Shown in pieces: positions 2,697-49,285 of a DNA stretch of 64,000 nucleotides (the stretch's first letter is position 1; each line of letters begins with the position of its first letter). This DNA comes from Alphaproteobacteria bacterium GWF2_58_20 (GTDB lineage Bacteria > Pseudomonadota > Alphaproteobacteria > UBA1247). The stretch covers positions 106,386-170,385 of the forward strand of contig MEMB01000007.1 in the NCBI GenBank assembly GCA_001768735.1. The letters run 5' to 3'. The notes under the pieces are model-generated. The model was given only the letters and a program-made list of their open reading frames with translations. It made no database searches and was not told where the DNA came from. Made by a program: the position numbers and the translations under genes.

Positions 2697-3401
2697 CTAG
2701 CGGTTTTTTTCGATCAGCGCAAGCACCTGCCGCAGGCGGGCGATGGTTTTTTCGTCCGGCTTTCCTGAACGGTGTCCTGGCAGGAAGTGTTGCTGGAAAG
2801 CCAGAAGGATGGTTTCCGAAGATTCTTCCACATAGCCGTAACCGATGGCCGCCAGCAGGCGGCAGGCCTCTTCCGCAGGATCCGGTACGGAGATGGTAAA
2901 TGTTTCTTCCTCTGGCCACAGGCCGGTTCCGGCCTTTGCCAGGCGGGCCCAGTCAAACCATTTTCCAGGGTCCTGCTTGCGCAGGGGCGCCACATCGGAA
3001 TGTCCCAGCACGCGGCCTTTGGAGATGGCATGGCGGGCGATGATGTTCCGCGCCAGTTCTTCCAGCGTCGCCATCTGCACTTCCGGGAAAGGTTGGTTGC
3101 CGGAATTGTCCAGCTCGATGCCGATGGATCTTGAATTGATGTCGGATTCCCCAAGCCAGCAGGAGATTCCGGCATGCCATGCGCGCCGTGATTCGTCCAC
3201 CATCTGGAAGATTCGCCCGTCCTTGCCAATGAGGTAATGGGCGCTGGCCTCTGCGGATGGATCGCACATCCGCGCGAGGGCGGATGTGGCGTCGGGCATG
3301 TTGGTGTAATGCAAAACCAACATGTCGATACCCGTTTTCCGTGCATTGTGATTGGGTGACGGATGGGGGATGACAGGCGAATGGGTTTTTGCTACAAGCA
3401 T
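2697..3401 (-). CDS. N-acetylmuramoyl-L-alanine amidase (AmpD/AmiD-type amidase_2) with a C-terminal peptidoglycan-binding domain
   Basis: Contains SPNHNAR...IDMLVLHYTNM...SAHYLIGKDGRIFQMVDESRRAWHAG.S.W......NSRSIGIEL.N, the classic amidase_2 signature. The C-terminus has a PG_binding-like segment, LLAAIGYGY...LLAFQQHF. Confidence 0.8.
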   Translation of the reverse strand: MLVAKTHSPVIPHPSPNHNARKTGIDMLVLHYTNMPDATSALARMCDPSAEASAHYLIGKDGRIFQMVDESRRAWHAGISCWLGESDINSRSIGIELDNSGNQPFPEVQMATLEELARNIIARHAISKGRVLGHSDVAPLRKQDPGKWFDWARLAKAGTGLWPEEETFTISVPDPAEEACRLLAAIGYGYVEESSETILLAFQQHFLPGHRSGKPDEKTIARLRQVLALIEKNR

Positions 3402-5711: not shown

Positions 5712-6200
5712 ATGAAGCATCGTTCGCTCGTATATTCCATCGTGCCGCTTGCGGCACTTTTCCTTTCCGGGTGTGAGCTGCCTCCTCCGGTTGTCATCCC
5801 GCAGAATCCGGTGGAATCCCGGCTGGCGGATGCGGCTGGACGTGCGGCGGATGCCCTGCAGAAGCTGGCGGCTGTTGAGCAGGTCCGGAGTGGCGTGGTC
5901 GCAGAAGCGCCGGTGTCCAATGTTCCGCCGGAGCTGATGCAGCAGGTCAGCCTGACCTGGGTCGGCCCGATTGAGCCTGTGGTTCGCCGCATGGCGGAAC
6001 GCATTGGTTATGGGTTCGACGTTCTGGGCGTTGCCCCACCGGTTTCGGTGGTTGTTGATGTCAATGCCGTTCGCCGTCCAGCCATTCAGGTGTTCCGGGA
6101 TATCGGCCTGCAGGCTGGCACCCGGGCAGACCTGACCATTGATGCACAAAATCATGTTGTGGAGTTGCAGTATGCGCCGGTTTCTGGCTCGGACCGCTGA
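5712..6200 (+). CDS. dotD: DotD/TraH-family T4BSS outer-membrane lipoprotein
   Basis: Signal peptide and lipobox MKHRSLVYSIVPLAALFLSGC. The C-terminal N0/secretin-like domain reads LTWVGPIEPVVRRMAERIGYGFDVLG..P.....V.V......AIQVFRDIGLQAG.RADL.ID.....VELQY. It sits immediately upstream of the dotC and dotB homologues. Confidence 0.75.
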   Translation: MKHRSLVYSIVPLAALFLSGCELPPPVVIPQNPVESRLADAAGRAADALQKLAAVEQVRSGVVAEAPVSNVPPELMQQVSLTWVGPIEPVVRRMAERIGYGFDVLGVAPPVSVVVDVNAVRRPAIQVFRDIGLQAGTRADLTIDAQNHVVELQYAPVSGSDR

Positions 6201-6981
6201 GGCTCTGGCCTGCAGCTTCCTGCTGGTTTTGCCAGCCGTGGCTGCACAGCCTGTGCCGCTCTCTTCCCTGCAGGAAATTGAAGCGCCGGCAGGTCTTTCC
6301 GAGGAGCTGTCCGGCCTCCAAATCCGCAATGATGCCATTCGGGAAGCCGCCCTTTCCTACGGTGCCCGTGGCGGTCTTTCCGCCCGCACGTTTGAATTGA
6401 TGCTGGAGGTGGCCAAGTACGATACGGAGATGAGCCGGGTGTTTGATTTCCGGCAGCTGCTGGTTCCGGCTCCATCGGGAATGCTGATTGAACCGCCTGT
6501 CATTGATGAATCCCAGTATGCCCTCAAGGTTGCGCCGGAAGGCCAGGAAGCCGCTGTGGCCGATCGGGTGTTTGCGATTGACAAGCCTGCCCGCATTGTG
6601 TCCGCGCCGCGTGACTGGCGTTCCTATATTGAGCGGGAATGGGACATGGTGGAGCCGCCTGTTGCGGTTCTCTTGCCGCGGACGGACGAGGAACGGGCCA
6701 GTTGGCGCAAGTGGGTTTCTGAGGGCTGGAAAATGGGTTTCCAGCAGGCAGACGAGATTTTCCAGGCTGACCTGGACCGGTTGGTCAAGGATTATACCGG
6801 GATGGTGCGGTATCGCATGCTCTTGGCACAGGGCATGGTTTCCGCGCCTTATGCCATGCATCAGGACCGTGGCGTTACCGGCGGGGGCAAGGAAATGCGT
6901 GTGGGGGATCGCGCCATACGCATTACGGGCCCGTCACAGTTTGAACCGAGGGCGGAACGTTGGACACCGGCGGACAGGTAA
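6172..6981 (+). CDS. dotC: DotC/TraI-family T4BSS outer-membrane-associated protein
   Basis: N-terminal signal sequence. Contains IRNDAIREAALSYGARGGLSART...VFDFRQLL...PPVI, which matches my recollection of the DotC family. Its position between dotD and dotB reproduces the conserved dotD-dotC-dotB order. The start was chosen at MRRFLA and overlaps the dotD end. Confidence 0.7.
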   Translation: MRRFLARTAEALACSFLLVLPAVAAQPVPLSSLQEIEAPAGLSEELSGLQIRNDAIREAALSYGARGGLSARTFELMLEVAKYDTEMSRVFDFRQLLVPAPSGMLIEPPVIDESQYALKVAPEGQEAAVADRVFAIDKPARIVSAPRDWRSYIEREWDMVEPPVAVLLPRTDEERASWRKWVSEGWKMGFQQADEIFQADLDRLVKDYTGMVRYRMLLAQGMVSAPYAMHQDRGVTGGGKEMRVGDRAIRITGPSQFEPRAERWTPADR

Positions 6982-7031
6982 CAGAAACGCCGGATCCCGT
7001 TCCCGGGACATGGCCAGCTGAACCGCCCCGT

Positions 7032-8117
7032 ATGCGGGATGAAGATCTCGACGCCCTGCTTTACTGGTGTGTGAATGAACGGGCCTCGGACATCACCCTG
7101 CAAACCGACCGACCTGTTTATGTTGAAGTGGATGGCAAGCTCCGTCCTGCAACCGTTCGTCCGTTGGACGCGGCCGACCTTTCGGTGATGCTCAACCGTG
7201 TTTATGGTGCGGAAGCGCTGGCCAAGCTGGCTTCTGGTACCGACCTCGACCTTTCCTACGAAATCCGGCTGGACCGTAATACCCGTAGCCGTTTCCGCGT
7301 CAACATCACGGCCATTTTGAGCCGTGGGCGCGATTCGGTGCAGATCACCATGCGTGTCCTGCCCAGCATGCCCCCCAGAATGCAGGATCTTGGCATCGAG
7401 CAGGAAATCATTGACGCGTGGGCGCCGCGGCAAGGCCTTGTCCTGGTTACCGGGCCAACGGGCAGTGGCAAAACCACCCTTCTGGCGGCGGGCTGCCGCA
7501 TGCTGGTGGAGCGCGAACAGGGCTGCGGCAAGATGCTGACCTATGAAGCGCCGATCGAATATGTCTATGATGCGGTTACAGGCCCGCATAGCCTGGTGTC
7601 GCAAAGTGAAATTCCTCGCCATCTTCCCAGTTTTGCGGATGGGGTGCGCAACGCGCTGCGCCGGAAGCCGAACATTATCCTGGTGGGCGAATCGCGTGAC
7701 CGGGAAACCGTGGCGGCAGCCATCGAAGCCGGACAGACCGGGCATCTGGTGTATTCAACCGTTCATACCATCGGGGTGGCGGCCACCATGCGCCGAATGG
7801 TGTCGGTGTTTGAGCCGGACGAGCGTACCGAACGCGCCTTTGCCCTGTTGGAAACAATGCGGCTCATTGTCACCCAGGCCCTGGTACCAAAAGTGGGTGG
7901 CGGCCGCGTTGGTGTGCGAGAATGGATGGCGTTTGATGATTCCATCCGTGATCGGCTGTTTGACATTCCGATTGAACATTGGACCACGGAAATCCAGCGC
8001 CTTGTGCCTGACCGTGGCCGGAGCATGGCAGAATCGGCCAAGCGCCTGTTTGAGGCCGGGTTGATTGACAAACGCTGGTTCTTCCTGCTGTCGCAGGAAA
8101 CGGCAAGGGGGGGCTGA
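7032..8117 (+). CDS. dotB: DotB/TraJ T4BSS ATPase (PilT/VirB11-like secretion NTPase)
   Basis: Walker A in LVLVTGPTGSGKTTLL. Contains ILVGE.RD (Asp box) and TGHLV.ST.HT (His box). The N-terminus reads ASDITLQ...PVYVEVDG. The ATG at 7032 is preferred over the in-frame TTG at 6960, which overlaps dotC. Confidence 0.85.
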   Translation: MRDEDLDALLYWCVNERASDITLQTDRPVYVEVDGKLRPATVRPLDAADLSVMLNRVYGAEALAKLASGTDLDLSYEIRLDRNTRSRFRVNITAILSRGRDSVQITMRVLPSMPPRMQDLGIEQEIIDAWAPRQGLVLVTGPTGSGKTTLLAAGCRMLVEREQGCGKMLTYEAPIEYVYDAVTGPHSLVSQSEIPRHLPSFADGVRNALRRKPNIILVGESRDRETVAAAIEAGQTGHLVYSTVHTIGVAATMRRMVSVFEPDERTERAFALLETMRLIVTQALVPKVGGGRVGVREWMAFDDSIRDRLFDIPIEHWTTEIQRLVPDRGRSMAESAKRLFEAGLIDKRWFFLLSQETARGG

Positions 8118-8120
8118 TCC

Positions 8121-8396
8121 ATGTCGGCAGACCTTCATTGGCGCAACACCATGAAACCCGCCCGGTTTTTTGCCCTGGATGCGCGTGCGGCGGCACCGTT
8201 TTTTGTGGTTTTGCTGCATGCCCGCAACTGGACATTTGCCGTGGCGATCATTGTCATCATCGTGTTTGTGGTGGCCGAGCGTCGGGGCCTGACTTTTGAA
8301 GCGGCCATCCGGGCCTTGCGTAGCTGGATTGTGGGGAACCGTCGTCCAGCTGTTATTTTTACAGATAAACGGCGCATGACGGAGTATCTTTCCTGA
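8121..8396 (+). CDS. icmT: IcmT/TraK small T4BSS inner-membrane protein
   Basis: 91 aa. HWRNTMKPARFFALDARAAAPFFVVLLHARNWTFAVAI......V.ERRGLTF closely follows the IcmT pattern (HWRDS...PRFF.LDARAAFP...FLLH.R.WT...). It lies directly after dotB. Confidence 0.85.
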   Translation: MSADLHWRNTMKPARFFALDARAAAPFFVVLLHARNWTFAVAIIVIIVFVVAERRGLTFEAAIRALRSWIVGNRRPAVIFTDKRRMTEYLS

Positions 8397-8520
8397 TGTG
8401 GAAGAAACAGAAAGCCGTTGCATTGAGCGTGTTGAAAACGTATAACATGCAGTGAAGGTTGTGTGGCTGCATTCATTGTGTAGCTGCAGGGGAGTATCAA
8501 TCATGCAGGAAGTCAGGTTC

Positions 8521-9612
8521 ATGAAGCATCAAGCAGTTTTTTCCTTGGCCACCGCCCTGGCATTGGTCATGGCAGCCGGTACCGCCCAGGCGGGGTTCCA
8601 ATGGGTTCCCCAGCCGGAAGTTGCAAAACCCGCCATGATGAATGCGCCGGTGGTGGAAGTTATCCCTGCACAGGACATGGCGCCTGTGGTTGAGATTGAT
8701 GTTCCCGCCATTCGGCCTGCTCCGGCCATGGTGCCGGCAGCTGCGCCCATGGCGGAGGAAGACCTGCCGCCGTGGCTGGCCAAGGAATCCCCCGCTCTTC
8801 CCGTGGTTGTGGAAGAGGAGATGACTGTTCCGGAAGTGAAGGGTGTGATTGAAGCCCCCGTCATGGCTCCGGTGGTTGCTGAAGAACCGGCCCTTGAAGG
8901 GTTTGGCAAGAACATGCCGCTGGTTATCGCCATGCGGCAGATCGTGCCAACGGATTACCAGTTTGCTTTTGGATCTGGCGTCAACATGGGGGCGGCCATT
9001 ACCTGGGAGGGTGGAAAGCCCTGGAATGTTGTCCTGAAATCGGTGCTGGAGCCCATGGGGCTTGGCCTGCGCGTTGTGGACAAGGTTGTCTATGTAGAAA
9101 AAATGGAAAACGGCAGGCCGGTTGAGGGCATGTTTGCAGCAGCCGTGAAGGCGCGTGTTTCCCAGGAACCACCTGTTATGGTGGAAAAGCCGTTGATTGA
9201 GGCTCTTCCTGCCCAGCCTGTGGTGGAAGTTGTTTCCGCCATGGGAGAGCCGATGGAAGAGGATGAATTGATGCCTGCGCTTGGAGAGGCTCCGGAATTG
9301 AGCTTCCTCCCCCTGCCTGTGGTGCGTGAAGTTCAGGAAGAAATTCGCGTACAGCCCAAATGGGTGATCGAACCCGGACGAACCTTGCGTGAGGTTCTGG
9401 AAGACTGGGGCCAGCAGGCAGATTGGGTTGTGGTCTGGCGCAGCGAACGGGATTACCTGATTGAATCCGGGGCCATCTTTGAGGGGGCTTTTGCGCAGGT
9501 CGCTGAAGAAGTCCTGCAGGCTTTTGCCCATGCCGAGCCGCCGGTGCGTGCCACGTTCTATCGCAACAAGACCTTGGTGATTGATGCCGAGGCGATGAGC
9601 GACCTGAACTGA
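8521..9612 (+). CDS. Secreted TcpQ/PilL-like protein: two TcpQ-type beta-domains joined by Pro/Ala/Val/Glu-rich linkers
   Basis: Signal peptide MKHQAVFSLATALALVMAAGTAQA. The central domain reads NMPLVIAMRQIVPTDYQF...ITWEGGKPWNVVLKSVL. The C-terminal domain reads KWVIEPGRTLREVLEDWGQQADWVVVWRSERDYLIESGAIFEGAFAQVAEEVL, typical of toxin-coregulated-pilus Q / IncI PilL-like proteins. Confidence 0.6.
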   Translation: MKHQAVFSLATALALVMAAGTAQAGFQWVPQPEVAKPAMMNAPVVEVIPAQDMAPVVEIDVPAIRPAPAMVPAAAPMAEEDLPPWLAKESPALPVVVEEEMTVPEVKGVIEAPVMAPVVAEEPALEGFGKNMPLVIAMRQIVPTDYQFAFGSGVNMGAAITWEGGKPWNVVLKSVLEPMGLGLRVVDKVVYVEKMENGRPVEGMFAAAVKARVSQEPPVMVEKPLIEALPAQPVVEVVSAMGEPMEEDELMPALGEAPELSFLPLPVVREVQEEIRVQPKWVIEPGRTLREVLEDWGQQADWVVVWRSERDYLIESGAIFEGAFAQVAEEVLQAFAHAEPPVRATFYRNKTLVIDAEAMSDLN

Positions 9613-9635: not shown

Positions 9636-9662
9636 AGGGCGGCCATTTGGCCGCCCTTTTTA
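9636..9662 (+). terminator. Rho-independent terminator closing T4BSS block 1
   Basis: Perfect hairpin agggcggcc-attt-ggccgccct followed by tttttat. Confidence 0.8.
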
Positions 9663-9846
9663 TGTTTGGAAAGCCGTGCATGGGCCTATGCACAAGGGAA
9701 TTTGGTAAGTTTTTGTAAAGAAGTTGGTGTAAACTGGAAGGCGTTGAGAAGGGTTCATTTTTTTTGAATGGAGTTGTTGAACAGCTTTTGAATTGTGTGC
9801 GTACCGGGAATTTTCCTCCTCCTGTTTGGTTGAAGGGATGTGCTGC

Positions 9847-10344
9847 ATGGCTCGGACTGAACACCATATCAAAGCCCATTTACGGCTTATACCCGTCAAG
9901 GCATGTTTGTATGTCGTGCCACCCAAGGCCGAACGCCAACGCATAGCTAAACAGTTTGGCAAGATCCGAAAACAGTTTGCCAAGTTTCTGGCGGAAAATC
10001 ATTTGGAGGATTTGCGTCGTCTGGGCATTTCCGAGGCCGAAATTGATATCATGCGGGAAACTGGACGGGGGCCAGAAGGATATACCGTCCACCATAAGCT
10101 TCCCCGCCATGGTGGCGGTACAAACGACTTTTCCAATCTTGTCCTGATTTCCAGAGCGATCCATTCCGATATCCATTATGAAATGGATCGTCAGCTTTTT
10201 GGATCAAAAAAACCGATTTCCCAGATGAAAACCGGGGATAGTTGCTGGATTGATATTCCTACGCCGGAAGGCATGATTTATATTCCGCCGGTTTTGCCCG
10301 CCCTGGATAACATCCCGGATTCCCTGCGTTTGAAGCTGCGTTGA
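9847..10344 (+). CDS. Free-standing HNH/EndoVII-superfamily nuclease-like protein (paralogue 1)
   Basis: Beta-beta-alpha-Me signature EGYTVHHKLPRHGGGTNDFSNLVLISRAIHSDIH. The gene is visibly more A/T-rich than its surroundings. The start at MARTEHH gives a size matching paralogue 2, though the longer in-frame start at 9793 remains possible. Confidence 0.65.
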   Translation: MARTEHHIKAHLRLIPVKACLYVVPPKAERQRIAKQFGKIRKQFAKFLAENHLEDLRRLGISEAEIDIMRETGRGPEGYTVHHKLPRHGGGTNDFSNLVLISRAIHSDIHYEMDRQLFGSKKPISQMKTGDSCWIDIPTPEGMIYIPPVLPALDNIPDSLRLKLR

Positions 10345-10534
10345 ATTTTTTGCATGGGCCCATGCGCGGATTTTTTTTAAAAGCGCTGGGCTTTCACGAG
10401 AGGCATGTTATGATGCCACCGAAACAAGAAAAATTCATGGAGTGAGAAGCGACAGGACAACCGTTTGTCCGGAGTGACGTGCCTTTCAAGAATCACTAGG
10501 AATATCAACCTCTAGCGATTGGAAGGAAAACAGG

Positions 10535-11029
10535 ATGGCTGGGAAGGGCATAGACGTCATCACGACGTTTTGTTGCATGCCCAAGATTAACGTCCGATAT
10601 ACCGTTGCTTCCAAAGAGCAGCGTGATCAACGTCGTAATTATTACCATGATGTTGTTCGCAAGCAGTTTGCCAGTCACCTTGCCACACATCATGCTGAAA
10701 AACTCCGCATCCTGGGGATTCCCGAAGAGCAGATCACGATCATGCGTGACCGGGGCGAAGGGCCGGAAGGCTATAATATCCACCACAAGATTCCGCTGCA
10801 TGCCGGTGGGACGAATGATTTTTCCAACCTGATCCTGATGCGGGCGGATTTGCATTGTCATCTGCACCGGTTTGTGGATGCGAAGATCCTGGGGCTCAAG
10901 GTTGGCAAGAGCCGGGATGTTGTCCTGCCTTTTCTGGAAGGGGAGGTCTGTTTTATGCAGCCGTGGAAACAGCCTGGCTGGAATCCCAACGCGCCTCTTC
11001 CTGTGCCGCCTTCCTCCTGTTGGGGGTGA
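10535..11029 (+). CDS. Free-standing HNH/EndoVII-superfamily nuclease-like protein (paralogue 2)
   Basis: Contains EGYNIHHKIPLHAGGTNDFSNLILMRADLHCHLH. It shares the upstream helix region (..RKQFA..LA.HH.E.LR.LGI.E..I.IMR..G.GPEGY) with paralogue 1. Confidence 0.65.
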   Translation: MAGKGIDVITTFCCMPKINVRYTVASKEQRDQRRNYYHDVVRKQFASHLATHHAEKLRILGIPEEQITIMRDRGEGPEGYNIHHKIPLHAGGTNDFSNLILMRADLHCHLHRFVDAKILGLKVGKSRDVVLPFLEGEVCFMQPWKQPGWNPNAPLPVPPSSCWG

Positions 11030-11035
11030 GGCAGC

Positions 11036-11293
11036 ATGGTTGTGAATGTTTCGGTGGAGACACTTTCATGGGCGGATGTTCGGGGTATCGCCCGGGCCTT
11101 GCATAAGGCTCATCCCATGGTTGACCAGTCACTTTTGACCCCCGAAGATGTGCGGCGCATGGTGGTGGAGCTTCCCGGGTTTTCCGACCTGCCGCAGCCG
11201 GAAAATGAAAACATGCTGGATACTGTTGTTTATGCATGGCTTCGGATCGAGAAAGAAGAATGGGAAAACGAATTGGTGGAAGATAATGCATGA
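11036..11293 (+). CDS. IscX (YfhJ)-like small acidic protein
   Basis: 85 aa. LSWADVRGIARALHKAHPMVDQSLLTPEDVRRMVVELPGFSDLPQPENENMLDTVVYAWL aligns position-for-position with my recollection of E. coli IscX ([60 protein letters not shown]). Its stop overlaps the start of the next gene by 8 nt. Confidence 0.6.
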   Translation: MVVNVSVETLSWADVRGIARALHKAHPMVDQSLLTPEDVRRMVVELPGFSDLPQPENENMLDTVVYAWLRIEKEEWENELVEDNA

Positions 11294-12896
11294 TATCCTG
11301 ATGCAGCCCGATGTTCACGAGGAACGCACCCTGTGGGTGCCCTTGGGGGGCAACAACGAGGACACCATCGGCGGCAACAGCCATGCCATCATTCATGAAT
11401 GGGTGGATGAGAATGGGGAAGGGCATCGTCAGGTTGTTCTGGTGGATGCGGGCAACCTGTTTGGTCGTGGCGGCAAGCATTCCGAATTCCTGCCCGTCCT
11501 GGATCCGTTCCTGACCCGGCGGGAGGATGAAGGCAAGGAATTCTCTCCCACCCATCTCCATGCATCGGCCATTTTCATTACCCATGCCCATGAAGACCAT
11601 ATCGCGGCGCTTCAGCATTACATCAACCGTGGCTTCAAGCTGCCGCCCATTTATTGCAGCAAGCTGACGTCCCAGTATGTGATGGATGACCTTGAAGAAC
11701 TGATTTCCGACCCTGACCAGTGGCCGGAAATCCATGTGATGGAGCCGGGTGAGCGGGTGCAACTTGGAAAATTCACGACACGCGCCGTGCCGGTGAGCCA
11801 TTCCGTATCGCAGTCTTTTGCCTACCAGGTGAAGACACCGGGAAGCAATCTCCTGTTCACGGGGGATTTCAAGATTGACCAGGATTTGCTTCTTGGGCCG
11901 ATGACCGACCTCGGCATGCTTGCGGAAATCGGGCGTGAAGGTGTGGATGCTGTCATGATGGACTCCACCCGGGCCGATGTGCCGGGCTTCACCATGACGG
12001 AACATGCGGTACGGGAAACTTTCCGGCGGATCATGAAGCAAAATCCGGACAAGCGCTTTATCACGGCGGTCATGGGCCGGAATACCGAGCGTGTTGCGGG
12101 GCTGGTGAAGGTGGCAGCGGAAATGGGGCGCCAGATTGTTCATGAGGGGCCTGCGCTCAAGAAGACGCTTTATCTTTGCAAGCGTGCGGGGATTGACCTG
12201 CGGTCGTTGCATCCGGATGTGAAGATCCACGATGGCAAGAGCCAGTTGGCCCGGAAATTGGCCCCCAGCCAGATGGCAGGCATGATTACCGGAACCCAGG
12301 CCGAGATCAATGCCGCTCTTGATCTGGCATCGCGGGGAGATCACCGTCGTCTGCGGCTGGATCCGAAAACCGATATCCTGATCATTTCTGCCTCGCTCAT
12401 TCCCGGTAATGAGGCGCGGGTGCATAAATTGGTTGCCGACTTGCGTGCCCAAGGTTTCATCGTCATTGTGTCCCGGGATGAAGACGTCGCTTCATCCGGC
12501 CATCCGGCGGCAGAGGATTGCAAGCTGACAGCGAAAACCACAAATGCCCGCATGGTCATTCCGGTGCATGGCTCGATTGCACACCGGACGGCCCAGTGCC
12601 GCAACATGGCAGAGATCGGCGTGCCCAGCCTGATGGTGGGGAATGGCAATATTGTGTGTTTCGGAGGGCCGCAAGGCACCCGGATTATCGGGCACCGGCC
12701 GCATGGCCTGATTGGCGTTCAGGAAAAGCGGGTGGGTTACAACAGTCCCGACAAGAATGACCCGAACGCGCCCAAGGTCCAGTATGCCTATGAAATGATC
12801 ATGCAGAAACCGAAGCCTTTGGCCCAGCCAAAACCACCGGCGCCAAAACCGCCACAGCCGCGCTATGCGCCGAAAGACGATCCAGCACTGCTGTGA
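11286..12896 (+). CDS. RNase J-fold metallo-beta-lactamase/beta-CASP nuclease-like protein, paralogue 1, with a Pro/Lys-rich C-terminal tail
   Basis: Motifs VLVDAGN, THAHEDHIAA (HxHxDH), VSHSV..S, FTGDFK.D and MMDSTRADVPGFTMTEHAV. Also SSGHPAAED and IPVHGS, the equivalents of beta-CASP motifs. The N-terminus PLGGNNEDTIGGNSH replaces the canonical LGGLGEIGKN. The tail reads KPKPLAQPKPPAPKPPQPRYAPKDDPALL. Confidence 0.75.
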   Translation: MHDILMQPDVHEERTLWVPLGGNNEDTIGGNSHAIIHEWVDENGEGHRQVVLVDAGNLFGRGGKHSEFLPVLDPFLTRREDEGKEFSPTHLHASAIFITHAHEDHIAALQHYINRGFKLPPIYCSKLTSQYVMDDLEELISDPDQWPEIHVMEPGERVQLGKFTTRAVPVSHSVSQSFAYQVKTPGSNLLFTGDFKIDQDLLLGPMTDLGMLAEIGREGVDAVMMDSTRADVPGFTMTEHAVRETFRRIMKQNPDKRFITAVMGRNTERVAGLVKVAAEMGRQIVHEGPALKKTLYLCKRAGIDLRSLHPDVKIHDGKSQLARKLAPSQMAGMITGTQAEINAALDLASRGDHRRLRLDPKTDILIISASLIPGNEARVHKLVADLRAQGFIVIVSRDEDVASSGHPAAEDCKLTAKTTNARMVIPVHGSIAHRTAQCRNMAEIGVPSLMVGNGNIVCFGGPQGTRIIGHRPHGLIGVQEKRVGYNSPDKNDPNAPKVQYAYEMIMQKPKPLAQPKPPAPKPPQPRYAPKDDPALL

Positions 12897-13012
12897 CGGA
12901 GCCTTGCATTTTTTGCAGGGGTGGTGAATGAAAAGAACATGGCTGTTTGCGGGTTTTTCATGCGAAAATGTTCGTATGGAAGTTCCCTTTTTGTCCGGGA
13001 AAGGCAAAAAAC

Positions 13013-14479
13013 ATGTCGGAATGGATTGCATGGGTTGCGCTCGGCGGGACCAATGACCATGGCATCGGCGGCAACTGCGGCCTTCTCATTCATGGAGATG
13101 ATTCCGGTGCGGCTCCGGAAATCCTCATGGTGGATGATGGCTTCAAGTTCGAGGACGGGCATGGCAAGTCCTACCCGGTTCTGGATGACTTCCTGCCCTA
13201 TATCAAGGGCGTTCTCCTGACCCATTCGCACGGCGACCATATCGGCGGCATTTCGTTGCGCATGCCCCGGACGGAGGTCTATCCGCCCATCTACGGTTCG
13301 CAGATGACCATCAACGTGCTGGAGCACAACATCGAGCGCGAAGTGGATGAACGAATTGTGCGGGGGCTTGCACGCAACGTGGTGGCGCCCAGGGAAAGTT
13401 TCCGGGTTGGCGGGTTCGAGGTTGAGCCCGTGCTGGTCAGTCATTCCTCGGTCGAATCCTATGGCTATCATGTGAAGGTGGCGGGTCGGAGCGTTTTCTT
13501 TACCGGCGATTTCAAGTGGGATCTTGACATGCCGCTGGATAGCTCCACCGATGTGGCGCGCCTCATCGAGATCGGGAATGCGGGACTGGATGTCCTTTTT
13601 CCGGATTCGACGGGTGCCGACAATCCCGGCTTTACGCCCAAGGAATGGGCGGTCGCGGCCGATCTGGAAAAGCTGGTGCGCGACAATCCGCAGGTGACTG
13701 AGTTCATCATGCCCATCGGGGCAACCGCGCATCAGCATATTGCCATGCTGGCGGCTGTGGCCATGAGAACGGGCCTGCCCATCGTTTACGAGGGCAAGGG
13801 GCTTGATAACAGCCTCTTGGACCTGTTTCGTTCGGGGTACGAAATGGAAAAGAAATATCACGGTTGCCGGATTGTTCCGGCAAACAGTGCGCTTGGGCAG
13901 GAAATCATCGGACGGGAAGATCGCCGCCTGTGCCTGGGTACTGGTGCGCAGGGCGAGGAAAATGCCTTTTTCGCAAAGGCGCTGCGAGGCTGCAATTATA
14001 ACCTGCGTCTGGATCCCGTGCAGAGCATGGTGGTCAACCTGTCGGGGGTGATTCCCGGCAACGAGAAAACCGCAGATTTCATTTTTGAAAAATGCCGGGA
14101 GCTGGGGATCCGGCAGGCGTTTGCCAAGGCATCCGGCCACGGGGCGTCGGAGGATTTGCTGTGCATGAGTACGGCGCTGCGCCCGGGAGTTGTCATTCCC
14201 CTGCATGGCGACCGGAAAAAAATCGCGGCCCATGTGGCGTTGCAACAGGCGGCCGGGCACGAGGCTGTCGCAACAATCGGCGGGCAGGTGCTGCTGTGGC
14301 GGGATGGGGCCGTTTTGCCGGAAACCATCGGTTTTGTGGATACGGCGCGGATGATCGCGCGGGAAACCGGGTTTGTGCGCGGCCGCAACATCTACCAGTA
14401 CATGCGCGCGGAAGGCTGGTCGAAACAGCCGGAAAACGCCCACAAAATCACGCTTCCCACATGGGCGCCGAAACCCTGA
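13013..14479 (+). CDS. RNase J-fold metallo-beta-lactamase/beta-CASP nuclease-like protein, paralogue 2
   Basis: Motifs LGGTNDHGIGGNC, LMVDDG, THSHGDHIGG, VSHSS, FTGDFKWD, FPDSTGADNPGFTPKEWAV, ASGHGASEDL and IPLHGD. The protein ends ...TLPTWAPKP. Confidence 0.75.
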   Translation: MSEWIAWVALGGTNDHGIGGNCGLLIHGDDSGAAPEILMVDDGFKFEDGHGKSYPVLDDFLPYIKGVLLTHSHGDHIGGISLRMPRTEVYPPIYGSQMTINVLEHNIEREVDERIVRGLARNVVAPRESFRVGGFEVEPVLVSHSSVESYGYHVKVAGRSVFFTGDFKWDLDMPLDSSTDVARLIEIGNAGLDVLFPDSTGADNPGFTPKEWAVAADLEKLVRDNPQVTEFIMPIGATAHQHIAMLAAVAMRTGLPIVYEGKGLDNSLLDLFRSGYEMEKKYHGCRIVPANSALGQEIIGREDRRLCLGTGAQGEENAFFAKALRGCNYNLRLDPVQSMVVNLSGVIPGNEKTADFIFEKCRELGIRQAFAKASGHGASEDLLCMSTALRPGVVIPLHGDRKKIAAHVALQQAAGHEAVATIGGQVLLWRDGAVLPETIGFVDTARMIARETGFVRGRNIYQYMRAEGWSKQPENAHKITLPTWAPKP

Positions 14480-14596
14480 CCCATGCGCCCCGCGCATGGC
14501 TCCCTTGCGAAATCGGAATACCTCCTGCCCGCCATTATCTGTGATACTGGTTCCGTCAGCATATTTCGACACAAACCCGATGTGAAAGGACATGAC

Positions 14597-16120
14597 ATGA
14601 CCGCACCCTATACCGAATGGGTTTCCCTTGGCGGCAACAATGAAGACGATATTGGCGGAAACTGCCATCTGGTGACATATTTTGATGGCAAACATGCGCA
14701 TTCCATTCTGGTTGATGCCGGCAACAAGTTCAGCAAGGTTCCGGGCTATGACCAGTTCTTTCCCATCCTGCCCAAGGGCGTGAAGGCGACCTTCTGCACC
14801 CATGGCCATCTTGACCATATCGGAGCCACCGCGCACCTGCTCAATCACGGACTTCCGGTTCCGCCGGCCGTTTATGGCAGTTCCATGAGCCTCAATGTCA
14901 TGCGCATCCAGCTGGGCCGCGTTTATGGCAATGAAAATCCTTGGCCGCACCTGCACGACATGGAACCGCGCGAGGCCGTCAATGTCGGCCATATCCGGGT
15001 GGAAGGGGTTTCCGTGAGTCACTCCATTCCGCAGGCTATGGGTTTTTATGTGGTCACGCCCACGGCGCGCCTGCTGTTTACGGGCGATTGCAAATGGGAT
15101 ACCCAGCTGCCCATCAAGCCGGTTACGGATGTCAATGGTCTGCAGCGGATTGGTGATCGCGGTCTTGAAGCCCTGTTCCTTGATTCCACCCGTTGCCAGG
15201 TGCCGGGCTTTACCCGGCCGGAGCAAGACGTGCGTGACGAGATCCGCGCGCAGGTTCTGGCCAATCCGCAGGTGGATGAGTTCATCATGCCGGTCATGAG
15301 CACCTCGGTGCAGCGCATGGCCGTTCTTGCCGAGCTGTCGCAGGAGATGAATATTCCCATTATTTATGAGGGACGTTCGATCGAGGACATGCTGGAAGCG
15401 GCCAAGCGTTCCAAAATCGACCTGAAGAAGATGTATCCCGGTGCGCGTATCATGAATGCCCGCAGTTTTCAGGGGCAGGAGATGATCAAGCAGGGAATCC
15501 GGCATTTCCACATGGGTACTGGCACACAGGGCGAGGAAAATGCCTTTTTTGCCAGGGCCATGCGCGGGGAAAGCCAGAATGTTCGCCTTAATCAGGCAAA
15601 AACCCTGGTCCTGTTCCTGGCTTCTGTCATTCCAGGAAATGAGGCTGCATGTGAACCGCAGTTCGCCAAATTGCGCGAGATGGGAATCCGCTATGTCCTG
15701 ATCCACACATCGGGTCACGGCAGTGCAGAAGATCTCTTGAAATACGGGGAAGTGACAAAACCGCGCGTGCTGTTTCCGGTGCATGGTTCCCGCGCCCACA
15801 TCGATCATCATGCCAGCATCCAGCAGGAAGCGGGCCGCAAGGTGCAGATGGCCATGAATGGTGACCGGTGGCGCTGGGATGGGAAGGGGCAGACCCCTTA
15901 TTATGCCGGCCACATCGACACCAAGGCCCTGGCCTGCAAGGAAATGGGACAGAAATGGGTCACCAACCCCAAGAGCAAGACGGGACAGGAAGTCTTGCGC
16001 AATATCTATGAGTACAAGATTGTAGATAGCTGGGATGCGCCGAAGACGGAAAGCGGCATTGTCCTTCCGGCCAAGAAGAAGATCGTCCTGGCGGGCATGG
16101 AACCTGTGGGGCCGAAATGA
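14597..16120 (+). CDS. RNase J-fold metallo-beta-lactamase/beta-CASP nuclease-like protein, paralogue 3
   Basis: Motifs LGGNNEDDIGGNCH, ILVDAGN, THGHLDHIGA, VSHSIPQ, FTGDCKWD, FLDSTRCQVPGFTRPEQDV, HTSGHGSAEDL and FPVHGS. It shares NPQV.EFIMP with paralogue 2. Confidence 0.75.
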   Translation: MTAPYTEWVSLGGNNEDDIGGNCHLVTYFDGKHAHSILVDAGNKFSKVPGYDQFFPILPKGVKATFCTHGHLDHIGATAHLLNHGLPVPPAVYGSSMSLNVMRIQLGRVYGNENPWPHLHDMEPREAVNVGHIRVEGVSVSHSIPQAMGFYVVTPTARLLFTGDCKWDTQLPIKPVTDVNGLQRIGDRGLEALFLDSTRCQVPGFTRPEQDVRDEIRAQVLANPQVDEFIMPVMSTSVQRMAVLAELSQEMNIPIIYEGRSIEDMLEAAKRSKIDLKKMYPGARIMNARSFQGQEMIKQGIRHFHMGTGTQGEENAFFARAMRGESQNVRLNQAKTLVLFLASVIPGNEAACEPQFAKLREMGIRYVLIHTSGHGSAEDLLKYGEVTKPRVLFPVHGSRAHIDHHASIQQEAGRKVQMAMNGDRWRWDGKGQTPYYAGHIDTKALACKEMGQKWVTNPKSKTGQEVLRNIYEYKIVDSWDAPKTESGIVLPAKKKIVLAGMEPVGPK

Positions 16121-16515
16121 CCAGCCTGAAGACGGTTTTGGAGAAACTTGTTGCTGGTGGGGGGCGCAAGCTGCCCCCTGCCAGCGATGCCGGCCTGACC
16201 TCGGCGGAAATGACGCTGGCCGCCCTTGGTGCGCCGGGCCTTCCGCCCGATTTCGTGGCGTTTCTGCGGGTGTCGGATGGTGCCGTTTACCACCATATCC
16301 GCTTTTTTGGCACGGCAGATATTGCCATGGCGCAGGAGGATATGTTCCGGAGTCGTCGGCCGCCGCATTTCCTTGGCCTTGGCCAGGCAGATGACGATGT
16401 ATATGCCTTTGATGCCCGCGATGGCGCCTACAAGATTCTCGACCCCACCGATTGTGAGGATTTTGGCACATTTGCAAGTTTTGCCGAATTGATGGACGAC
16501 GCTGTCGGGGAATGA
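16117..16515 (+). CDS. SMI1/KNR4 (SUKH-superfamily) immunity-type protein
   Basis: 132 aa. Contains LTSAEMTLAALGAPGLPPDFVAFLRVSDGAVY...FFG...........LGLGQADDDVYAFD, which resembles the SUKH-1 pattern (LP.DY..FL...NG). The ATGA overlap with paralogue 3 lies at 16117-16120. Confidence 0.55.
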   Translation: MTSLKTVLEKLVAGGGRKLPPASDAGLTSAEMTLAALGAPGLPPDFVAFLRVSDGAVYHHIRFFGTADIAMAQEDMFRSRRPPHFLGLGQADDDVYAFDARDGAYKILDPTDCEDFGTFASFAELMDDAVGE

Positions 16516-16532
16516 AGTGTTTCCCGGCCCGC

Positions 16533-16566
16533 AAAAAAACCGGCCCTTTGCGGGGCCGGTTTTTTC
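16533..16566. terminator. Bidirectional rho-independent terminator between the nuclease cassette (+) and flgL (-)
   Basis: An A7 run, then hairpin ccggccc-tttgcg-gggccgg, then a T6 run. Confidence 0.75.
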
Positions 16567-16586: not shown

Positions 16587-17582
16587 TCAGAGATAGTTGA
16601 CGAGGCTGGTTTCCTGCATGGAAGAGATGATGCGGTAAGAGATTTCCAGCTGTGTCTGCATGTTTTGCAGGCGAGTCAAAATTTCCGCCGTGTCCACGTC
16701 CTCCACCTGGCCGATCATCTTGTCCATGACCACCTTGGTTTCCTCGTGACGGGAGGCGGCATCGTCCATGGCATTGGATGCAAGAGCCAGGTTGGCGACG
16801 TCCACATCAAGGGCGCGGCTTCCACTGTCAATAAGGCCCATGGCGGAATCGTAAAGGGCCCAGTAGCCCTCCACATCGTTGCTTTTGTATTCAAGGTTTT
16901 CAATGATGGCCAGGCCCTTCATGATGTCCTTGAACCCATCGTTGTTGGCCTTGATGGTATAATCCACCGTCAGGTTGTCATCCACACGGACGGTGGTTCC
17001 GCCTGCGGCGGCAAGTCCGCCAGACAGGCCGATATCCGTGTCTGAAAAGGCGTCAATGTTCGCAATGGTGGTTGCCGCATCCTGGGTTCCGGCCTGCCAT
17101 GCGGCCATTTCCGCCTGGATATTGGTGTTGAGGGCATCTTCATCTGCCATGGGGGCGCTTTCAATGGCGTCGCCGGCAAAAAGCAGTCGGCCATTGAGGG
17201 AGGTATTGATCAGGTTCTGAATGGAGTCGAGGGCGTTGGCCGCCGATATGTTGACGCTTTCGGAAACCGCATCGCCGCCGCGGAGCTGGCCAACCAGGGT
17301 GGTGAGGACAGCGCGGGCCGAGGACGTCATGTTGTTGACGGCCTTGTCCATGATTTCGGTGTTGCCGAGCGCTGTGTTGATGCTGGAAATGTAGGTGTCC
17401 ATGCGGGCCAGATCGCCACGCATGGAGACAGAGATGGTGGCATCAGTTCCCAGGCCACTGAAGCTTTCGGATTTCAGGCCGCTGGCCAGCTGGCTCTGGG
17501 CCGTGGACATCTGCCCGCGCAGGTTGCGCAGAAGGGCGTTCATGTGGGTGGTCTGGCCGATGTTGGAAGTTGCGATGCTCAT
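16587..17582 (-). CDS. flgL: Flagellar hook-associated protein 3 (FlgL)
   Basis: Flagellin-like N- and C-terminal helices (C-terminus TRLQNMQTQLEISYRIISSMQETSLVNYL). It lies 4 nt downstream of flgK. Confidence 0.7.
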   Translation of the reverse strand: MSIATSNIGQTTHMNALLRNLRGQMSTAQSQLASGLKSESFSGLGTDATISVSMRGDLARMDTYISSINTALGNTEIMDKAVNNMTSSARAVLTTLVGQLRGGDAVSESVNISAANALDSIQNLINTSLNGRLLFAGDAIESAPMADEDALNTNIQAEMAAWQAGTQDAATTIANIDAFSDTDIGLSGGLAAAGGTTVRVDDNLTVDYTIKANNDGFKDIMKGLAIIENLEYKSNDVEGYWALYDSAMGLIDSGSRALDVDVANLALASNAMDDAASRHEETKVVMDKMIGQVEDVDTAEILTRLQNMQTQLEISYRIISSMQETSLVNYL

Positions 17583-17586
17583 GGGA

Positions 17587-19062
17587 TTACCTCACCGTGT
17601 TGAGAAGTTCCTCGAAAATCTGGTCCATGCTCTGGAAGACGCGGGCTGCGGCGGCATAATTGCGCTGCAGCTCGATCATGTTGGCCACCTCTTCGTCGAG
17701 ATTGACGCAGGATGAATCCTGCAGGCGCTTGAGCAGAAGTTCGGAATAGGTTGTTTCCTGCGTTTCCTTGCCTTGTGTGTTGGCGGTTTCCTGCGCGTGC
17801 CGCGAAATGATGGTGCGGGCGTATTCCACCAGGGTGGCCGTGCCTGTCATGCCGGTTGTCAGGGTGCCATCAGGCCCAAGGCCGGATGTACGGAAAGGAT
17901 CATGTGCCGTTCCGGCGGCATCCGCCGTTGTGCCAAAGGTATAGGCCAGGATGTTGTTGATGACGGCATTCGATCCTGCATTCAATCCGCCGGCTCCCGT
18001 GCCTTGCTGGATGAGGGAGGAATCCGCCACCACGGCCGGGTTGACGGTGATGGTGCCGGCAAACCCCACATAGGCGGGGGGCGCATCGGCCGGAATGTTG
18101 CCGGAGGAGTCGGAAAACAGCCGCAATCCCTGGGCATCAAAACGCAGGGCCATCTTGTGGGCGATTTCGTCGATCTGGGCATTCTGCTGGGGCAGGGTGG
18201 TGTCGCGCATTTCGATCAGTGCGCCCAGTTTGCCGCCGGGATTTCCCGCACACAGATCGATGTTGGTGGACGGGTCGCCAACATAGATGCCAGCGGCTGT
18301 TGCGGGATAGGCTGAAGTGGTGGTGATGGACGTTGGGGTAAAGGAAAGCAGTCTGGCTTCGGTGTCTGCCAGAAGCTGGCCATCCCGTGTCTGGACCACA
18401 AGGGTGCCGTCCCCCTGCTTGTAGGAGGTGATTTCCATCTGCCCTGAAAGGGTGTTCACCAGCTGGTCGCGGTAATCTTCAAGGTCGGCCGTGCTGTGGC
18501 CGGCATAGATTTCCGTGACGATGGACTTGTTGATGTCGGCAAGCTCGGTGAGCGTTGCGTTAATTCCCTCAACGGTTGTTTCCATCGCTGTCTGGACATC
18601 GCCCCGCAGTTTTGTGAAGCTTTCGGACAGGCGGTTCAGGGTTTCGGCAACGGTTTGGGCCTGACGCAAGGTGTCGTTCTGCAGAACGGTGGAATCCGGA
18701 ACCGAGGAAAGCTTGATGAAACGGTCATTGAGTGTGCTGATTTCCGCAGCGATGGAGATTTCCGAATCCGGGGAACCATTGAGGTCCTCGATCCGTGACA
18801 TGTAGGTGGCCCGTGTTCCATAGTAGCTGGCGTTGCTGACCTGTTTCCAGTAGTCCTTGAGCAGGGCGCCATCAACATTGCGGCTGGTTTCCCCAACCCA
18901 GACGCCGGAAAACTGGTTGTCGATGAACAGGCTGTGTTGCGGCAAAATTTTCCGGGTATAGCCCGGGGTGGAAACATTTGCCGTGTTTTGCGCCACGAGG
19001 TCGAGGCCGCGTTGGGCGACCTTGATGCCGAGAAGGGCAGATTGCAGGCCTTGTATCGCCAT
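17587..19062 (-). CDS. flgK: Flagellar hook-associated protein 1 (FlgK)
   Basis: N-terminus MAIQGLQSALLGIKVAQRGLDLVAQNTANVSTPGYTRK. C-terminus VNLDEEVANMIELQRNYAAAARVFQSMDQIFEELLN. The start was trimmed to the ATG at 19062. Confidence 0.9.
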   Translation of the reverse strand: MAIQGLQSALLGIKVAQRGLDLVAQNTANVSTPGYTRKILPQHSLFIDNQFSGVWVGETSRNVDGALLKDYWKQVSNASYYGTRATYMSRIEDLNGSPDSEISIAAEISTLNDRFIKLSSVPDSTVLQNDTLRQAQTVAETLNRLSESFTKLRGDVQTAMETTVEGINATLTELADINKSIVTEIYAGHSTADLEDYRDQLVNTLSGQMEITSYKQGDGTLVVQTRDGQLLADTEARLLSFTPTSITTTSAYPATAAGIYVGDPSTNIDLCAGNPGGKLGALIEMRDTTLPQQNAQIDEIAHKMALRFDAQGLRLFSDSSGNIPADAPPAYVGFAGTITVNPAVVADSSLIQQGTGAGGLNAGSNAVINNILAYTFGTTADAAGTAHDPFRTSGLGPDGTLTTGMTGTATLVEYARTIISRHAQETANTQGKETQETTYSELLLKRLQDSSCVNLDEEVANMIELQRNYAAAARVFQSMDQIFEELLNTVR

Positions 19063-19208
19063 GTGATGACTCCTTGCCATAAAGTGGCTCCGCCTGTTTC
19101 CATGCAAGTTGCGGGCCAAGTGTAAAAGCGTGTTTGACGCCATTGCAAAATTCTGCGCCCTGCGCCATAATTCCGGCAATCTGGCGATTGCCTTTCTGAC
19201 AGGAGATC

Positions 19209-22858: not shown

Positions 22859-23155
22859 GGCAACCCTCCGGAGTAAGTGTATGGATGCAACATTGAAACA
22901 TGGGCATCTTAGCTTCCCTTTAAGGGAAAATCAATGGTTCATCTTGAGCTGCGTCCTCATGGTTCCCTCCCGGAATGTCTTGGCGGGCCTTGTGAGTTCC
23001 ATGTTGACCGGCCATGCCCCATGAGGTAAAACAGAAGGGATCCGGAATCTGTCCCTTTTTTAGGCGGGTGCTGGTTTCATGGTTTTGTGCGGAATGTCCG
23101 GGAGGAATGCCGGGTGGTTGAACAGTCTGAAAAAGTGCAGGAAAAATCAGGGGAG

Positions 23156-27888: not shown

Positions 27889-28053
27889 GGGTTTCAGGAT
27901 GGAGGATCATCCAAAACGCCTTTTTTACTTGACGTTTTTGCTTTGGTTGCACATATTCGCGCCAAAGGAATGTTTCGCTTGGAAAGATTGAACCAGAATA
28001 TGCCGGGGAAGGGACATCATCACATTCTTGCGCAGCCTGAGATCGGGCTGCGC

Positions 28054-28956: not shown

Positions 28957-28994
28957 AAAAGATGATGTTTTTTATCTCAAGGTAACCAGAATTA

Positions 28995-29375: not shown

Positions 29376-29394
29376 TCAAAGAAGCTGATACCTG

Positions 29395-30093: not shown

Positions 30094-30153
30094 TTGCTGG
30101 GGAGAAGGCCCGCATGTGCGGTAGGTTGAAGGAAAAAGAGGGAGAGGATTTTT

Positions 30154-46326: not shown

Positions 46327-46381
46327 GGACCATCTCTTGTGTTATGTTCGTTGCGGGTAAACACTATAGGAAGAATATGCC

Positions 46382-49239: not shown

Positions 49240-49285
49240 GGAGGGAATGCTAACATGGATACGTATGATGACAAGAGGTTTTTGC

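Follow-up and report, generated by a model that had tools for sequence, protein, structure and literature searches.

Why should a cassette of nuclease genes stand inside a T4BSS (type IVB secretion system) gene cluster? This question is raised by a stretch of 64,000 nucleotides from Alphaproteobacteria bacterium GWF2_58_20 (assembly GCA_001768735.1, contig MEMB01000007.1, positions 106,386 to 170,385 of the forward strand), which was analyzed over its whole length and is called the window in the following. Seven genes on the + strand are located within 9.6–16.6 kb of this 64-kb window. They encode two small HNH proteins (HNH1 and HNH2), an IscX-like protein, three RNase J-like nucleases (RJ1, RJ2 and RJ3) and a 132-aa protein with a SUKH fold as judged by modeling; the HNH, IscX-like and RNase J-fold calls of a preliminary description of this DNA agree with the profile matches obtained here. 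The explanation that we favor, at a probability of about 45%, is that the cassette represents a composite effector-and-immunity cargo in an accessory slot of a chromosomal, Dot/Icm-like T4BSS cluster, which resembles the kib cluster of Pseudomonas putida and follows the gene order of mating-pair formation type I (MPF-I) systems. Gene content, folds, catalytic motifs, conserved pairings, synteny with the T4BSS and a divergence faster than that of the T4BSS core underlie this explanation.

The link between the cassette and a T4BSS is conserved in a second element. An ENA contig (L002) and its extension from JGI (L006) carry the genes for DotB, IcmT, the TcpQ-domain protein, HNH, the IscX-like protein, RJ1, RJ3 and SUKH in the same order as in the window, and the ATGA overlap between RJ3 and SUKH is also present in L006. 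The same order in a second, divergent metagenomic element indicates that the arrangement did not arise by chance, while HNH1 and RJ2 are absent there and thus represent extras of the window's lineage. Divergence is much faster in most of the cassette than in the core of the secretion system (identities in Table 1), as would be expected for genes under conflict. Other searches returned little: word-index homolog searches with SUKH and HNH2 gave the query itself and the L002 ortholog only, the cassette DNA had no match among plasmids, and RJ3 as a single query found nothing in 185,579 species genomes and, among metagenomes, only L006, which belongs to the same element as L002.

DNase domains and a YrhA-family protein

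HNH1, HNH2 and the L002 ortholog all have the complete motif HH-x13-N-x8-H-x3-H, as read from the alignment, and its N-x8-H-x3-H part has the spacing of ColE7/E9 (colicin E9). For PF01844, with a gathering score of 21.4, HNH2 reached 22.6, and HNH1 reached 21.7 as a 183-aa open reading frame (ORF) and 20.8 as the 165-aa gene; scores for Col-Pyo_DNase (PF21431) were sub-threshold for the HNH proteins (14–15 bits, cut-off 27). The two proteins share 45% identity over 124 aligned residues. In tblastn searches of plasmid records, HNH2 matched LXG and PT-TG toxins in their C-terminal toxin domains, with E-values from 7e-13 to 9e-8, and from 7e-13 to 4e-6 with Hcp-fused toxins included. The matches comprise LXG toxins of type VII secretion systems (T7SS) in B. 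subtilis and Cytobacillus, a PT-TG toxin of Listeria, free-standing or Rhs-adjacent HNH proteins of Polaromonas and Photobacterium, and an E. coli region annotated in RefSeq as a T6SS (type VI secretion system) effector of the Hcp1 family. This homology to toxin tips extends over the full domain length of about 120 aa. By these alignments, HNH1 and HNH2 are predicted to be free-standing copies of the ColE7/E9-type DNase toxin domain. Hcp-fused HNH DNases were experimentally shown to be antibacterial T6SS toxins with immunity proteins (review PMC6099711), and the E. coli Hcp1-HNH locus presumably encodes that same Hcp-fused effector.

Taken alone, the 132-aa protein scores under the family cut-offs (SMI1_KNR4 15.8 bits vs 25.4, E = 0.022; NCBIfam YrhA 34.4 vs 55), and phmmer against the PDB returned noise only, mostly nanobodies. 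An exhaustive HMMER search yielded 45 relatives, and SMI1_KNR4 was matched by 22 of the 38 relatives that were aligned. The AlphaFold2 model used here was built from this 38-sequence alignment and reached a predicted local distance difference test (pLDDT) value of 95.6 and a predicted template modeling score (pTM) of 0.88, compared with a pLDDT of 40.6 from the single sequence. In a Foldseek search of the PDB with this model, the top 12 folds were all SUKH, with template modeling (TM) scores of 0.55–0.75 (3D5P, YobK 2PRV, Knr4, 2ICG, 2PAG and Syd; Lin2918 and PSPTO_5518 included). Besides that, hhalign aligned the family of the window protein over its full length to the YrhA proteins that follow HNH toxins, with 99.4% probability and E = 1.8e-21. 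On the strength of the model and these alignments, the protein is a SUKH-fold member of the YrhA family; the preliminary description had named this assignment as one that could fail, and it held in the profile search as well as in the structural comparison.

A YrhA-family protein is encoded by the next gene after the HNH domain in all six annotated loci (6/6). Since the window protein belongs to the same family, the HNH proteins appear as its partner, and neutralization by the SUKH protein most likely concerns the HNH DNases, not the RNase J-like enzymes. The polymorphic-toxin catalogue likewise pairs Tox-ColE7 with Imm-SUKH (PMC3482391). An immunity role towards the RNase J-like enzymes was rejected as the primary reading, because the YrhA family is consistently paired with the HNH domain elsewhere. 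The toxin/immunity logic proposed at the outset gains from both results, the homology to the DNase tips of polymorphic toxins and the position of YrhA after these tips. Module A of the cassette, as we call it, would then be a standard DNase toxin/immunity pair of two basic ColE7/E9-type HNH DNases and one acidic YrhA/SUKH protein, in which the putative immunity protein would bind and block the DNase inside the producer cell.

RNase J-like nucleases and the IscX-like protein

RJ1 matched RNase_J_b_CASP (1.2e-18) and reached 189 bits for TIGR00649 (cut-off 400), RJ2 matched Lactamase_B_2 (1.2e-16) and TIGR00649 (8.7e-44), and the best PDB match of RJ3 was RNase J 5A0T (9e-37), RNase J enzymes being the best PDB relatives of the RJ proteins. 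Residues H100, H102, D104, H105, H172, D194, D226, H406 and H428, which make up motifs I–IV of the metallo-β-lactamase (MBL) domain and motifs A–C of β-CASP, show no variation among RJ1–RJ3 and their relatives. As all metal-ligand motifs are invariant, none of the RJ paralogs looks dead, and RJ1–RJ3 are predicted to be catalytically intact β-CASP nucleases. The paralogs are old, with a mutual identity of 33–38%. Outside the ortholog, the closest relatives of RJ1 are about 33% identical, come from Pseudomonadota metagenomes and also lack PF17770, the C-terminal domain of RNase J. Searches of viral contigs and of phage records turned up distant RNase J relatives only.

One possible explanation is that RJ1–RJ3 are simply the RNase J set of the organism, serving housekeeping or island-specific RNA processing with the IscX-like protein as cofactor and with the HNH and SUKH genes as an unrelated neighbor. 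True RNase J enzymes are indeed the closest characterized relatives, the RNase J1 and J2 paralogs of Bacillus are known to form a heteromer, and related IscX/RJ pairs stand among chromosomal genes (MipZ, maf, rng and infA in locus L003). However, RJ1–RJ3 reach only 150–204 bits, far under the RNase J family cut-offs of 400 (TIGR00649) and 820 (NF047419). Neither RJ1 nor the clade members P0002, P0004–P0009, P0011 and P0021 have PF17770, which ordinary RNase J matches carry, and the PDB alignments stop at approximately residue 410–431 of 507. In addition, RJ1 is 47% identical between the two elements, compared with 95% for DotB, and the RJ genes are nested between a toxin and an immunity gene inside a T4BSS cluster, in an order that is kept in the second element. 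We consider such a housekeeping role very unlikely.

The IscX-like protein is clearly recognized by PF04384 (5e-13, 49.8 bits vs 25) and TIGR03412 (50.8 vs a cut-off of 40.4), and its family profile finds E. coli IscX in the PDB (1UJ8 and 2BZT) over the full length at 1.8e-10. The isc genes (iscRSUA-hscBA-fdx) were not found near the IscX-like gene, neither in the window nor in any of eight related loci, and with the isc context missing from every locus a true role in Fe-S assembly was judged unlikely. In seven of eight distinct contexts of the divergent β-CASP clade, an IscX-like gene lies directly upstream of the RJ-like gene (present in the window, L002, L003, L005, L087, L088 and L090/L091; absent from L004), and a search with the IscX hidden Markov model found an IscX-like ORF in none of 83 ordinary RNase J loci (80 genomic among the matches listed, 3 viral). 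The surroundings of the pair vary: it is found with a T4BSS (window and L002), with TrbL/VirB6 and SLT genes (L090), beside psd (L005) or among chromosomal genes (L003, L087 and L088). A full-text literature search returned nothing that links IscX and RNase J functionally. We take the RJ nucleases to have a dedicated partner in the IscX-like protein, which would most likely be an inhibitor or a chaperone that is made first.

Two further arrangements were observed around the pair. In L003 (3086–12671), L087 (266–7508) and L088 (408–5426), genes for a RecD-like AAA_30 helicase and for a conserved protein of 140 aa without a Pfam family come before the pair, and a YjbH-family protein and a HAD hydrolase are encoded after it; the whole set may form a larger conserved unit. 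In L090 (1411–7706), the pair (with the RJ-like protein P0021) adjoins an unknown gene of 600 aa, a gene for an SLT transglycosylase, two short genes (about 78 aa each) and one for TrbL/VirB6, which places a second type of type IV secretion system (T4SS) beside it.

The preliminary description had proposed that the cassette might be a set of T4BSS-delivered effectors. The link of the full cassette to a T4BSS stood, as it accompanies one in the second element too; the IscX/RJ pair also occurs without a T4BSS and is thus an independent unit that is not tied to it. Since this pair is conserved on its own, we regard the cassette as a composite of two modules and not as one T4BSS-specific system. 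Module B, which sits inside module A between the genes for toxin and immunity protein, would consist of the acidic IscX-fold protein followed by two or three RNase J-like nucleases. The IscX-fold protein, made first, would hold the β-CASP nucleases in check or chaperone them, and RJ1 and RJ3 may act as a hetero-oligomer like RNase J1/J2. Such nesting of one module between a toxin and its immunity gene is unusual and may indicate that the nucleases are co-regulated or physically associated.

These pairings bear on a purely intracellular explanation, in which HNH with SUKH and RJ with the IscX-like protein act as toxin-antitoxin-like pairs that are not secreted and that penalize the loss of the T4BSS island. 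In type II toxin-antitoxin modules, a small acidic inhibitor is encoded upstream of the toxin, and the IscX-like gene before RJ resembles this order; furthermore, the toxin domains are free-standing without a delivery domain, and IscX/RJ pairs are found in non-T4SS contexts. Three paralogous nucleases would be excessive for an addiction or stabilization module, however, a distance of 5 kb between the HNH and SUKH genes would be unusual, and the conserved position inside the T4BSS cluster has its precedent in effector-immunity pairs. Altogether, this explanation appears quite improbable to us.

A bolder form of the cargo explanation is doubtful, although it would have the widest consequences: IscX-fold proteins would be a new inhibitor or immunity class for a new RNase J-like β-CASP clade whose members are exported as toxins, and the T4BSS would deliver a cocktail of five nucleases to rival bacteria. 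If the cocktail were true, it would be the first biochemically assignable effector set of an antibacterial T4BSS, and exported β-CASP toxins would be the first interbacterial toxin with a metallo-β-lactamase fold.

The cassette inside the secretion cluster

T4BSS genes are located on both sides of the cassette (Table 1). The upstream block starts with DotD and is itself preceded by a thioredoxin-like, TrbB-type gene and an SLT gene; the downstream block is supported by Pfam matches to DotI_IcmL (3e-35 and 3e-36), DotH_IcmK (2e-75) and TrbI (7e-14). DotB shares 48% identity with its Legionella counterpart and about 33% with TraJ of IncI plasmids. From approximately 36.6 kb onwards, the window continues as ordinary chromosome (an adenylate cyclase gene, followed by pntAB, ubiD/X, the gene for a class II tRNA synthetase, rsmB and ftsJ), which shows that the T4BSS is chromosomal. 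The cassette had been described as wedged between the two blocks, and this stands insofar as T4BSS genes flank it on both sides, but the gap also contains FlgL, FlgK and three unknown genes, so that the cassette is one of several inserts. FlgL (331 aa) and FlgK (approximately 491–530 aa) occupy 16587–19179 on the - strand between the T4BSS blocks, in convergent orientation to the cassette, with which they have a terminator in common. No flagellar gene besides these two was found among the annotated ORFs of the window, and they may have been carried in as cargo, be left over from the insertion site or have been co-opted.

As an alternative to killing, the cassette could provide accessory enzymes for conjugation or establishment, whose substrates would be nucleic acids that are transferred or belong to the recipient. 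During DNA transfer, these enzymes might remove DNA or RNA of the recipient, process the strand being transferred or counteract the recipient's defenses, while the acidic proteins would restrain the nucleases in the donor. On IncI1 plasmids, a PLD-family nuclease (Nuc) and the primase Sog, a T4SS-exported protein, sit between traK (IcmT) and traL/traM (DotI), i.e. in exactly this slot, and R64 nuc is listed with the transfer genes (PMC6112013). The order DotD, DotC, DotB, IcmT equals traH-I-J-K, the TrbB-type and SLT genes upstream would fit as well, and IscX/RJ pairs elsewhere adjoin TrbL/VirB6 and SLT genes (L090) or a RecD/TraA-like helicase (L003, L087). On the other hand, neither a relaxase nor a type IV coupling protein nor an oriT was seen within the window, DotB is nearer to its Legionella counterpart than to TraJ, the region is chromosomal with flanking housekeeping genes, and the known relatives of the HNH domain are killing toxins with immunity proteins and not transfer factors. 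We therefore regard a role in conjugation as unlikely.

In the cargo explanation, which we prefer, the five nucleases are candidate exported toxins that the T4BSS would deliver into neighboring bacteria or possibly a eukaryotic host, where they would degrade DNA or RNA of the target. The two acidic proteins would stay behind and protect the producer and its kin. Export and toxicity, the matching of nucleases with neutralizers, and the target are what we infer in this model. The charge pattern, with basic HNH proteins (pI 9.0–9.6) and two acidic small proteins (pI 4.4–4.5), lends it slight support, as do the fast divergence and the C-terminal tails. All five nucleases end in a Pro-rich and often Lys-rich tail, with 4–11 Pro in the last 35 residues, which reaches past the domain end seen in LXG toxins, and neither of the small acidic proteins has one. 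The tails may represent a shared export or docking signal.

Several observations weigh against this model. HNH1 and HNH2 consist of the toxin domain and a short Pro-rich tail, with no N-terminal trafficking or pre-toxin domain, and in all seven proteins the T4BSS adaptor motif FxxxLxxxK is absent and no trafficking domain is recognizable. The IscX-like gene and RJ1–RJ3 separate the SUKH gene from HNH2, about 5.1 kb further upstream, and SUKH is translationally coupled via ATGA to RJ3 and not to an HNH gene, which makes the assignment of immunity protein to toxin uncertain. The IscX/RJ pair is found without a T4SS in L003, L005, L087 and L088, and its presence in such chromosomal contexts argues against an intrinsically secreted toxin. 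The term ‘lactamase’ is absent from the two papers compared, on polymorphic toxins and on SUKH, and the polymorphic-toxin catalogue (PMC3482391) lists no MBL or β-CASP toxin. Finally, the full cassette is known from only two elements across all collections searched.

A role in defense against phages or plasmids was also considered, in which a multi-nuclease cargo in an island hotspot would degrade invading nucleic acid and the acidic proteins would act as regulators. The cassette is nuclease-rich, fast-evolving and organized as an operon in a region that resembles a mobile element, and PADLOC gave one weak match, of SUKH to the candidate PDC-M40A (E = 0.004). No PADLOC defense-system model matches any of the cassette nucleases, however, a sensor, ATPase or helicase component is lacking from the cassette, and the HNH/YrhA pairing is characteristic of offensive toxins, so that a defense island is hardly probable.

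The cassette itself appears to be transcribed separately, between two intrinsic terminators predicted from their sequence. Both the set of seven same-strand genes and the strong terminators on either side (-26.8 kcal/mol with z = -6.95, and -22.5 kcal/mol) are as the preliminary description had them, with the start of HNH1 moved from 9793 to 9847; the former is an upstream TTG of the same ORF, which gives the 183-aa version. Two gene junctions overlap, IscX-like/RJ1 by 8 nt and the RJ3 stop with the SUKH start in the ATGA. A palindrome, GCATGGGCCTATGC, of the form GCATGGGCC(C/T)ATGC, occurs approximately 155–170 nt upstream of the start codons of HNH1 and HNH2. These two sites are the only zero-mismatch copies in the 64 kb, where 0.63 matches are expected at up to one mismatch, and they may serve as an operator or represent a promoter element that was duplicated. 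In the non-coding leader of HNH2, long stretches are conserved with the region upstream of the HNH gene in L002 (2270–2400), although the HNH proteins themselves are only 52% identical. The conserved part includes a -10-like box, TGTTATGAT, and GTGACGTGCCTTT..AGAATCACTAGG..CAACC.CTAGCGAT. The folding energy of this leader was no better than that of shuffled sequence, and Rfam gave no significant match in or around the cassette, the leader included. An ORF of 1223 aa (12863–16534, - strand), antisense to RJ2, RJ3 and SUKH and not in the JGI annotation, was set aside because GC-rich coding DNA most likely produced it as a shadow ORF.

Table 1 Features of the cassette and of the flanking T4BSS blocks, with positions in the window and protein identity between the window and the second element (L002/L006).
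Feature	Position	Strand	Description	Identity between elements
DotD	5712–6200	+	Pfam DotD 6.8e-31	
DotC/TraI	6172–6981	+	Pfam T4SS_TraI 2e-77	
DotB	6960–8117	+	Pfam T2SSE 6e-37	95%
IcmT	8121–8396	+	IcmT_2 on the JGI gene call	81%
TcpQ-domain protein	8503–9612	+	Pfam TcpQ 6e-20	53%
Upstream terminator	9636–9662	+	GGGCGGCC-ATTT-GGCCGCCC, then T-run; -26.8 kcal/mol, z = -6.95; closes the upstream T4BSS operon	
Palindrome	9678–9691 and 10352–10365		Upstream of HNH1 and HNH2	
HNH1	9847–10344	+	Predicted ColE7/E9-type HNH DNase domain, free-standing; 165 aa, pI 9.6	
HNH2 leader/promoter region	10400–10534	+	Non-coding; conserved upstream of HNH in L002 as well	
HNH2	10535–11029	+	Predicted ColE7/E9-type HNH DNase domain, free-standing; 164 aa, pI 9.0; the conserved copy, with ortholog in L002	52% (ortholog P0168)
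IscX-like	11036–11293	+	Small acidic protein; 85 aa, pI 4.4	61%
RJ1	11286–12896	+	RNase J-like β-CASP metallo-β-lactamase, predicted nuclease; 536 aa	47% (ortholog P0002)
RJ2	13013–14479	+	Third RNase J-like paralog; 488 aa; not in the second element	
RJ3	14597–16120	+	RNase J-like paralog, best conserved of the three; 507 aa	70–75% (L002/L006)
SUKH/YrhA-family immunity-type protein	16117–16515	+	132 aa, pI 4.5	56–62%
Downstream terminator	16533–16566	bidirectional	A-run, 14-bp stem, T-run; -22.5 kcal/mol; shared with convergent flgL	
Downstream T4BSS block	23087–33138	+	DotI (two copies), DotH, DotG, unknown genes, IcmJ/DotN, DotO-like ATPase	
IcmJ/DotN	29395–30093	+	NCBIfam IcmJ_DotN 108 bits, cut-off 100	
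DotO-like ATPase	30154–33138	+		

Further observations concern the borders of the T4BSS region and the chromosome beyond. At the left edge, a large protein with Lcl C-terminal domains of the Legionella collagen-like adhesin type (23–2128) is encoded together with an Amidase_2 (AmpD-like) gene (2697–3401). The right border is formed by a 7TMR-DISM membrane sensor fused to an adenylate/guanylate cyclase domain (36618–38774, - strand). A three-part pntAA/AB/B arrangement at 38.8–41.8 kb suggests an alphaproteobacterial host, and UbiD and UbiX are accompanied by three U32-peptidase genes at 44016–52304, a group which resembles the O2-independent ubiquinone pathway (UbiU/V/T-like).

Comparison with known systems

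Each part of the cassette has a counterpart among described systems. The IscX-like protein agrees with IscX (YfhJ) of the isc operon in full-length sequence and fold and is likewise acidic, but it lacks the iscSUA-hscBA-fdx context and has a β-CASP nuclease as neighbor in every locus. With RNase J of Bacillus (J1/J2), Streptomyces, Thermus and Deinococcus, RJ1–RJ3 share the MBL and β-CASP architecture with all seven catalytic motifs, and their side-by-side genes recall the J1/J2 heteromer. They differ in that they are 28–35% identical to these enzymes, have no PF17770, carry a Pro/Lys-rich tail on each protein and belong to a clade in which the IscX-like pairing is found, whereas it is not found at the 83 ordinary RNase J loci. 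The IscX/β-CASP pair, conserved across several lineages, gives the IscX fold a possible non-Fe-S role, and if the IscX-like protein inhibits the nuclease, the pair would constitute a new toxin/immunity or enzyme/regulator family.

Module A compares with the ColE7/E9 DNase tips that are accompanied by YrhA/SUKH proteins in LXG and PT-TG toxins, in Rhs-associated cassettes and in the E. coli Hcp-HNH locus followed by yrhA (PMC3482391). The domain of about 120 aa and its catalytic motif are common to all, as are the immunity family and the combination of a basic toxin with an acidic immunity protein. The window proteins are set apart by the lack of an LXG, Hcp, Rhs or PT-TG delivery domain, by the four or five genes that separate toxin and immunity gene, and by an adjoining T4BSS where the known systems rely on a T6SS or T7SS. 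The nuc/sog region of IncI1 has a nuclease gene in the same MPF-I slot, but its PLD fold is unrelated to HNH and β-CASP, immunity-type partners are missing, and it belongs to a conjugation system on a plasmid.

To our knowledge, only one antibacterial T4BSS is known, the kib system of P. putida, which was described in 2022. Both systems are chromosomal T4BSS islands of about 58–59% GC with matching sub-block orders (TrbN/SLT, DotD-DotC-DotB-IcmT; DotI-DotH-DotG...DotN-DotO). In strain IsoF, kib mediates contact killing of Gram-negative bacteria from a chromosomal island of 58.8% GC, with the orders TrbN, DotD, DotC, DotB, IcmT and DotI, DotH, DotG, DotF, DotE, x, DotN, DotO (PMC9519443). Its cytosolic effector-immunity pair, PisoF_02333/02332, follows IcmT at a distance of four genes, and the immunity gene precedes the effector gene; both proteins are annotated as hypothetical, the terms HNH, ribonuclease and lactamase are absent from the tables, and no biochemical activity assigned to the effector was found in that paper (PMC9519443). 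Compared by gene order and annotation, the immunity gene upstream of the effector in kib corresponds to the IscX-like gene upstream of RJ in the window, which differs by its five candidate nucleases and two candidate protectors.

The claim that no described system contains this combination thus stands for the combination as a whole and for the IscX/β-CASP pair, but not for HNH with SUKH or for effector-immunity genes within a T4BSS. The HNH and YrhA pair, effector-immunity pairs within T4BSS clusters and nucleases in the MPF-I slot are already known. New are ColE7-type toxins free of a delivery domain inside a T4BSS cluster, the nested architecture of two modules and the pairing of IscX-like proteins with β-CASP nucleases. 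Recognizable DNase toxins together with an immunity protein in the cargo slot of a T4BSS provide a directly testable model for what such machines deliver and for how the producers protect themselves.

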